Shown piece by piece: positions 52,257-52,404 of a DNA stretch of 64,000 nt. The first letter of the stretch is position 1. The number at the start of each line of letters is the position of its first letter. Position numbers and translations under genes: made by a program. The notes beneath the pieces are model-generated. The model was not told the DNA's origin and searched no databases. It saw nothing but the letters and a program-made list of their open reading frames with translations. Origin of the DNA: a virus (taxonomy: Duplodnaviria > Heunggongvirae > Uroviricota > Caudoviricetes); the IMG/VR virus record IMGVR_UViG_3300042901_002340. One strand, given 5' to 3'.

Positions 52257-52288
52257 AAAAAAGGCCTCCTTTTCGAGGAGACCTTTTT
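52257..52288 (-). terminator. Attenuator-type terminator ahead of tRNA block 1
   Basis: Minus strand aaaaaggtctcct-cgaaa-aggaggcctttttt. Confidence 0.85.
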
Positions 52289-52311
52289 GATATTTATTAT
52301 GTTACCTAATA

Positions 52312-52404
52312 TCAATACTCTCTCCTCATCACAATAGACGATTCACAAGTTGAACTTGTGTGATCTAAATGTAATGTATCTAATATGTACTGTATTTGTG
52401 ACAT
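52312..52404 (-). CDS. Putative attenuator leader peptide 1 (30 aa, MSQIQYILDTLHLDHTSSTCESSIVMRREY)
   Basis: Short ORF between promoter and terminator; GAGGAGA in last codons complements terminator 5' arm TCTCCTC. Confidence 0.75.
   Translation of the reverse strand: MSQIQYILDTLHLDHTSSTCESSIVMRREY

Follow-up and report, generated by a model that had tools for sequence, protein, structure and literature searches.

A short open reading frame, together with the overlapping RNA structures that precede a block of tRNA genes in a large phage genome, very probably constitutes a ribosome-mediated transcription attenuator controlling the phage tRNA operon. This assignment is computational, and no expression or ribosome data are available. 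The locus, leader 1, displays those structural features of this class of regulators that can be assessed from sequence: a short ORF with a usable start, codons cognate to the downstream tRNAs, a predicted terminator located before the genes, and, according to folding predictions, an exclusive antiterminator that a ribosome can cover. A leader-peptide attenuator for the tRNA block had been proposed in the preliminary description of this DNA, and is supported here by the codon statistics, by the predicted folds, by conservation, and by numerous independent parallels. The evidence obtained computationally bears on the layout, the codon match, the mutually exclusive folds, the coincidence of the switch point with the end of the codon run, conservation, and recurrence.

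The window, the whole stretch of 64,000 nucleotides analysed here, belongs to a complete virus genome of 430,120 bp with direct terminal repeats. It harbors 26 tRNA genes, all on the minus strand and distributed in two blocks, between which lie a Ro60/TROVE gene and its terminator. The genome encodes three sigma-70 factors, while a search of the gene content of the 430,120-bp genome revealed no RNA polymerase beta subunit. Dozens of TAnnTTTG boxes, the sigma-A consensus of Bacteroidota (PMC7366714, PMC9723704), precede genes genome-wide. From these boxes and from the absence of the beta subunit, a Bacteroidota host and the use of its polymerase are inferred. The features of leader 1 and block 1, in the order of transcription, are as follows.

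52519..54142, minus strand: upstream Ro60/TROVE gene with its own terminator, a neighbour outside the switch
52453..52462, minus strand: −7 box TAnnTTTG of a host-type (Bacteroidota sigma-A) promoter of leader 1, one of dozens of similar pre-gene motifs; use inferred
52425..52432, minus strand: GATATATA motif, probable phage late-type promoter of leader 1, tied to ORF starts; "late" is an inference
52405..52419, minus strand: A-rich translation start region with A at −3 and no Shine-Dalgarno, from the sequence
52312..52404, minus strand: leader 1 ORF, 30 codons plus TGA (ORF call; near-identical homologues with synonymous-only changes)
52336..52386, minus strand: sensor zone of codons 7-23, each read by a block-1 tRNA (codon-anticodon matching)
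52327..52376, minus strand: long intra-leader hairpin, candidate pause or protector (predicted −16.3 kcal/mol; pausing not shown)
52275..52327, minus strand: antiterminator, pairing 52327-52321 with 52281-52275 and 52315-52308 with 52294-52287 (predicted −17.0 kcal/mol, z −3.6)
52257..52288, minus strand: intrinsic terminator (the attenuator), 13 pairs and a U run (predicted −16.9 kcal/mol)
47002..52225, minus strand: block-1 tRNAs, namely Ser(TGA), Ser(GGA), Thr(TGT), Cys, His, Leu(TAA), Ser(GCT), Ile2(CAT), Glu, Asp, and a weak CAT-type tRNA
49174..51823, minus strand: three internal GATATATA motifs (51823, 50159, 49181) before endonuclease genes, a possible late bypass
48352..48450, minus strand: two internal host-type promoters (48450, 48361) before Ile2/Glu/Asp/Met, a bypass
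46969..46996, minus strand: terminator closing block 1

The GATATATA motif is found within 60 nt upstream of an ORF in 60 of its 93 genomic copies, compared to 1-5 of 44-69 copies for control octamers, and stands 20 nt before the start codon in leader 1 as well as in leader 2, the sister unit of block 2; it is probably a late promoter. An A at −3 is a positive determinant of translation in Flavobacterium (PMC6847099). The 5' regions of both leaders also contain a small hairpin around GATATATA (52434-52419 and 63719-63702), which only transcripts started at the upstream promoter contain.

The 30-codon ORF and the run of codons 7-23 (52386-52336) lie at the positions given previously, and all 17 codons match block 1. 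This length nevertheless rests on four-way wobble, since ACT must be read in this way by tRNA-Thr(UGU); strict wobble leaves a run of only 12 (p 3e-5). A run of 17 has a probability of 4e-7 under independent codons, and picking 10 of the 24 anticodons at random yields one ~2 times in 100,000 (permutation p 2e-5). Over the whole leader, block-1 tRNAs read 20 of 29 codons, where the fraction in the genome background is 0.37 (binomial p 5e-4), and the other reading frames of the 93-nt leader contain stops or show no enrichment (10 and 12 of 30). The Ser codons (AGT, TCA/TCG, TCT) also sit where the preliminary description placed them. Its emphasis on the Leu and Ile codons holds less well: the three TTA codons are present but weak evidence alone (TTA accounts for 30% of Leu codons, ~0.03), and ATA, although the Ile2 identity of its tRNA is supported, is the Ile codon used most often (55%). 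In E. coli, the gene that best matches the CAT-anticodon tRNA at 48142-48068 likewise has a CAT anticodon and is annotated in RefSeq as tRNA-Ile, which by sequence similarity makes the phage tRNA a likely Ile2. In leader 1, AGG/AGA codons are confined to the part beyond the switch zone, and CTN codons are absent. Just outside the window (G000 187600-188243), tRNA-Arg(TCT) and Leu(TAG) directly follow a promoter without any leader.

Homing-endonuclease-like genes are interspersed between the tRNA genes of block 1. Paralogous GIY-YIG-like genes directly follow tRNAs at 49153-48491, 50131-49445, 61338-60679, and 56712-56098, each with GATATATA just upstream, and their insertion pattern differs between relatives. 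The earlier caveat that Ile2/Glu/Asp/Met also sit behind internal promoters proved justified, both promoters being present, but understated, as three late-type motifs lie inside block 1 too. Transcription from the five internal motifs could escape the switch and supply every block-1 tRNA except the first three, Ser(TGA), Ser(GGA), and Thr, which lack any further promoter motif of host or late type. No strong terminator was found between the attenuator and the terminator closing block 1, so that read-through from leader 1 can reach Ile2/Glu/Asp/Met and one transcript can span the block. When only the seven tRNAs upstream of the host-type internal promoters are considered, 14 of 29 leader codons match (p 4e-4), the longest run being 6 codons. 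These promoters raise the possibility of an attenuator that is real by descent but largely idle here, most of block 1 being supplied from within. An internal host-type promoter is also found in the homologues L001-L003, as this explanation would have it. It remains improbable: the first three tRNAs depend on no other motif of these types, the leader and both folds are kept in 7 sequences, and L001-L003 and L149 possess an Asp tRNA upstream of the internal promoter or of the Ile2 gene.

Both antiterminator helices were located as described previously, and the predicted terminator lies 32 nt before tRNA-Ser. Pairing as strong as that of the 3' part of leader 1 is reached by only 0.5% of synonymous recodings (0.005) and 0.1% of codon-order shuffles (0.001). 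With the RNA cut at the terminator loop, and on the assumption that the ribosome covers 10 nt beyond its A-site codon, the best fold is the antiterminator for all ribosome positions up to codon 22; it is weaker at codons 23-24 and lost at codon 25. The predicted switch point (codon 23-25) coincides with the end of the matched run. The antiterminator had been expected to be lost with a ribosome at the stop codon; the folds are exclusive, but the loss is predicted earlier, at codon 23-25. A 7-bp hairpin suggested as a pause site is present (52360-52344, −5.7 kcal/mol), but is merely the tip of the 50-nt hairpin 52376-52327. The latter ends just before the antiterminator 5' strand, a position like that of the 1:2 pause hairpin of classical attenuators (PMC1183508), although pausing itself has not been shown.

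The antiterminator was to be judged by whether it could compete with the terminator in foldings with and without a ribosome. It competes on nascent RNA; on finished RNA, the terminator wins at most ribosome positions. At equilibrium, the terminator dominates the full-length RNA (P 0.9 or more) except with ribosomes stalled at codons 7 and 19-22. Without a ribosome, the full-length RNA favours the terminator by 10 kcal/mol, whereas the nascent RNA favours the antiterminator by 7 kcal/mol. Given the equilibrium result on finished RNA, these models imply that the choice between the two folds must be kinetic; kinetic folding was not simulated. The nascent preference further suggests that an untranslated leader 1 may read through, unlike that of trp.

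These elements suggest the following sequence of events. Host RNA polymerase would start ~45 nt before leader 1, or ~15 nt before it from the second motif. With fast reading of codons 2-22, the ribosome would arrive at codon 23-25 and mask the antiterminator 5' strand, the terminator would form, and the block would stay off. A lag on any Ser, Thr, Cys, His, Leu, Ile(ATA), Glu, or Asp codon would leave this strand free to capture the terminator 5' arm on its emergence, and transcription would proceed into the tRNAs reading the slow codons. Slow codons would thereby lead to the making of matching tRNAs, a negative feedback. Since the ribosome need only be held up at some point before the antiterminator strand, a single leader can poll eight amino acids. 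Translation of the leader, termination and its dependence on translation, and kinetic folding are all inferred. The mechanism would rely on transcription-translation coupling, and tight coupling in Bacteroidota is not established here; hints of leader-peptide attenuation have been reported in Flavobacterium (PMC9723704).

The leader 1 peptide is identical in six homologues (L001-L003, L147-L149), in which the Ser-Thr-Cys-His-Leu-Ser tRNA order is kept; in L147-L149, the first ten leader codons were preset by the search pattern. The four variable sites of the ORF among the 7 sequences are all third-position and synonymous (chance 0.002-0.012, p about 0.01). Such invariance might also be expected of a functional small protein, whose transcript would end at the terminator, the tRNAs being expressed through leakage or protein-mediated antitermination. 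This explanation is very unlikely: the leader peptides of other phages have no sequence in common, but each follows the tRNA set of its own block, the complementarity between leader and terminator is specific, and the peptide matches no family in Pfam. No match to it was found among GenBank phages either. Conservation extends to the RNA: past the leader stop, 8 of 17 unpaired positions vary compared to 2 of 37 paired ones, and indels are confined to loops, in the terminator to its loop only. One terminator G-U pair is A-U among the homologues, the antiterminator outer helix is invariant across the 7 sequences, and substitutions inside the 50-nt hairpin preserve pairing or lie in its loop. No two-sided covariation was observed among these 7 sequences, which are too close (~96% identical) to reveal it.

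The neighbouring Ro60 gene invites another explanation, in which the locus would be a non-coding Y-RNA-like partner of the Ro60 protein and its ORF incidental. The locus lies 160 nt after the TROVE gene and adopts a long rod fold (z −5.1). However, 52250-52450 shows no match to YrlA (Rfam RF02553), a YrlA-like match being found instead upstream of Ro60 (55866-55738); a terminator separates leader 1 from Ro60, and their spacing varies from 0.2 to 2 kb among relatives. The same layout also occurs without an adjacent Ro60 in leader 2 and in phage phi4:1 (see below), which leaves this explanation with hardly any credibility. Around the Ro60 gene, tRNA-like non-coding elements are observed at 55866-55570 (minus strand), 54540-54180, 58700-58390, and 47300-47000, one of the Ro60-flanking elements having a weak YrlA match (E 4e-4, 33.8 of 69 bits); they are likely its Y RNA partners.

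A second unit precedes block 2.

63498..63748, minus strand: leader 2, with a 42-codon ORF (63688-63560), an antiterminator, and a terminator (63523-63498)

Leaders 1 and 2 have a common promoter region, and each favours its own block: codons read by block 1 and block 2 number 20:7 in leader 1 and 7:33 in leader 2 (Fisher p 8e-6; both-leader permutation p 2e-4). The combination of promoter, short ORF, antiterminator, and terminator occurs only twice in the 430-kb genome, both times before a tRNA block. A third short gene with a terminator was rejected as a leader unit, as it encodes an ordinary small protein and has a new promoter after it. Internal host-type promoters are also found inside block 2 (62870, 57350), and a bypass of leader 2 is possible.

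Parallels in other phages were searched with a pattern of promoter, U run, and tRNA T-loop, blind to codon content, to which TROVE relatives were added, and 31 leader families were recovered. The pooled test used 28 of them, leaving out the two of this genome and one with a near-complete block. In these 28 families, 382 of 754 residues are cognate to the downstream tRNAs, compared to 208 +/- 19 after block swapping (p<1e-5), and every amino acid is commoner in leaders that precede a tRNA for it. The pairing of a leader with its own terminator is stronger than with those of others (−14.2 vs −8.0 kcal/mol, p<1e-5), and in ten two-leader contigs all 20 comparisons favour the own leader. The antiterminator begins a median of 7 codons before the leader stop, and cognate residues amount to 69% before the switch zone against 41% after it. 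Some pooled families (Cys/Leu/Val) are probably related, and the p values therefore overstate independence. Leaders and tRNAs clearly match at the level of amino acids; for isoacceptors, almost every Leu/Ser/Arg case is consistent, but the comparison is of low power. Among related phages, tRNA calls with stop-codon anticodons (TTA, CTA) were noted at L003:7918, L010:5002, L011:12835, and L014:3750, possible suppressors or mis-calls.

Three units were chosen by eye in the cultured Cellulophaga phage phi4:1 (NC_021788).

L270 11721, 12681, and 14427 (positions 87065, 88025, and 89771 of the phi4:1 record): phi4:1 codon-matched leaders with terminators before tRNA blocks

They split 20 amino acids over three tRNA blocks (permutation p 5e-6), and only one of the leaders is annotated (gp075, with a longer start). 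The filter missed them as well as one leader in L015, also found by eye, and leader counts are thus lower bounds. Under this filter, no leader was found in the TROVE-bearing relatives L004 and L005, which carry tRNA arrays and may differ in promoter type; the regions of two GenBank megaphages (L271, L272) gave no tRNA calls. Matched pattern scans retrieved 27 of 79 tRNA-bearing viral loci and 2 of 98 cellular ones. One cellular match, a short contig binned with Mollicutes, is probably phage DNA. The other, on a Chitinophaga sp. RAB17 scaffold (L249:710-200, minus strand), comprises two tandem His/Ile-rich leaders, each with a terminator, which precede tRNA-Ile(TAT) and tRNA-His among host-like neighbours (ECF sigma, FecR, MrcB-HNH); it is a possible cellular instance of a codon-matched attenuator. 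Codon-matched tRNA attenuators thus appear common in Bacteroidota-type phages.

Attenuation in the E. coli pheST operon, through its pheM leader, tunes the translation machinery to the supply of charged tRNA. The pheST attenuator differs in that it is chromosomal, responds to one amino acid, and targets an aminoacyl-tRNA synthetase. The leaders of E. coli amino-acid operons (trpL, hisL, pheL, leuL, and the multivalent thrL and ilvL) resemble leader 1 in possessing a short ORF with regulatory codons, an antiterminator over the ORF 3' end, an exclusive terminator, and an upstream hairpin (PMC1183508). In contrast, the phage leader is located in a phage, controls tRNA genes rather than enzymes, polls about eight amino acids without a long single-codon run, and has an antiterminator predicted on nascent RNA even without a ribosome. 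The Rfam leader families (Phe/Thr/His/Trp/Leu) all score below gathering (Phe_leader 30.6 of 55 bits, Thr_leader 23.8 of 55); the weak scores of the Phe and Thr models concern the terminator side only and reveal no sequence kinship.

T-box riboswitches likewise let tRNA status set the choice between terminator and antiterminator, and such a pair before tRNA-related genes might suggest one here. They bind tRNA directly, without a ribosome, and a leader sensing uncharged tRNA in this manner can practically be dismissed: no Rfam T-box match appears even at E 10, and the missing UGGNACC motif, which defines the class, refutes the identity. In the trn operon (L-array) of Anabaena, a large accessory tRNA array is similarly silent until translation stress, but a DNA-binding repressor, TrcR, controls the whole array without codon specificity, and attenuation is not mentioned (PMC8421152, PMC10272220).

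What the very probable attenuator senses is less certain. The ribosome cannot distinguish tRNA loss from amino-acid shortage, and both may trigger the switch. On balance, loss of functional tRNA is inferred, without expression data, to be the signal: extra tRNA cannot cure an amino-acid shortage, and the loop would close only if tRNA limits. Furthermore, two studies document host tRNA depletion during infection and its rescue by phage tRNAs, including T5 tRNA-Lys against PARIS (PMC10264068, PMC11464382). Sensing of amino-acid shortage through uncharged tRNA by the same switch, as in the trp, his, and thr leaders, is the less probable reading, though by no means negligible: classical leaders do so (PMC1183508), and the leader-tRNA matching is clear only at the amino-acid level. 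Any other signal is distinctly unlikely.

Leader-peptide attenuation is textbook knowledge for amino-acid genes; the tRNA-gene target appears new, and together with a many-input logic would extend attenuation. No description of attenuation of tRNA genes was found in the open literature, subscription journals not being covered, and the accessible parts of PMC10264068 (from which the string "attenuat" is absent) and PMC11464382 give no feedback control of phage tRNA synthesis. We tentatively propose, without giving it quite an even chance, that in large Bacteroidota phages a few tRNA operons share out the genetic code between them, each with a codon-checklist attenuator that detects tRNA loss, e.g. 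through cleavage by host anticodon nucleases or host RNA decay, and induces the matching replacements. Such a codon-resolved tRNA homeostat would act as a conditional counter-defence. Why phages carry tRNAs is a long-standing question, the answers being codon bias or the replacement of depleted host tRNAs; a switch that is on only at slow codons argues for tRNA supply on demand, and would be a direct reporter of which tRNAs run short in infection. Since phi4:1 has units of this kind and is cultured together with its host, Cellulophaga baltica, the idea is testable now.
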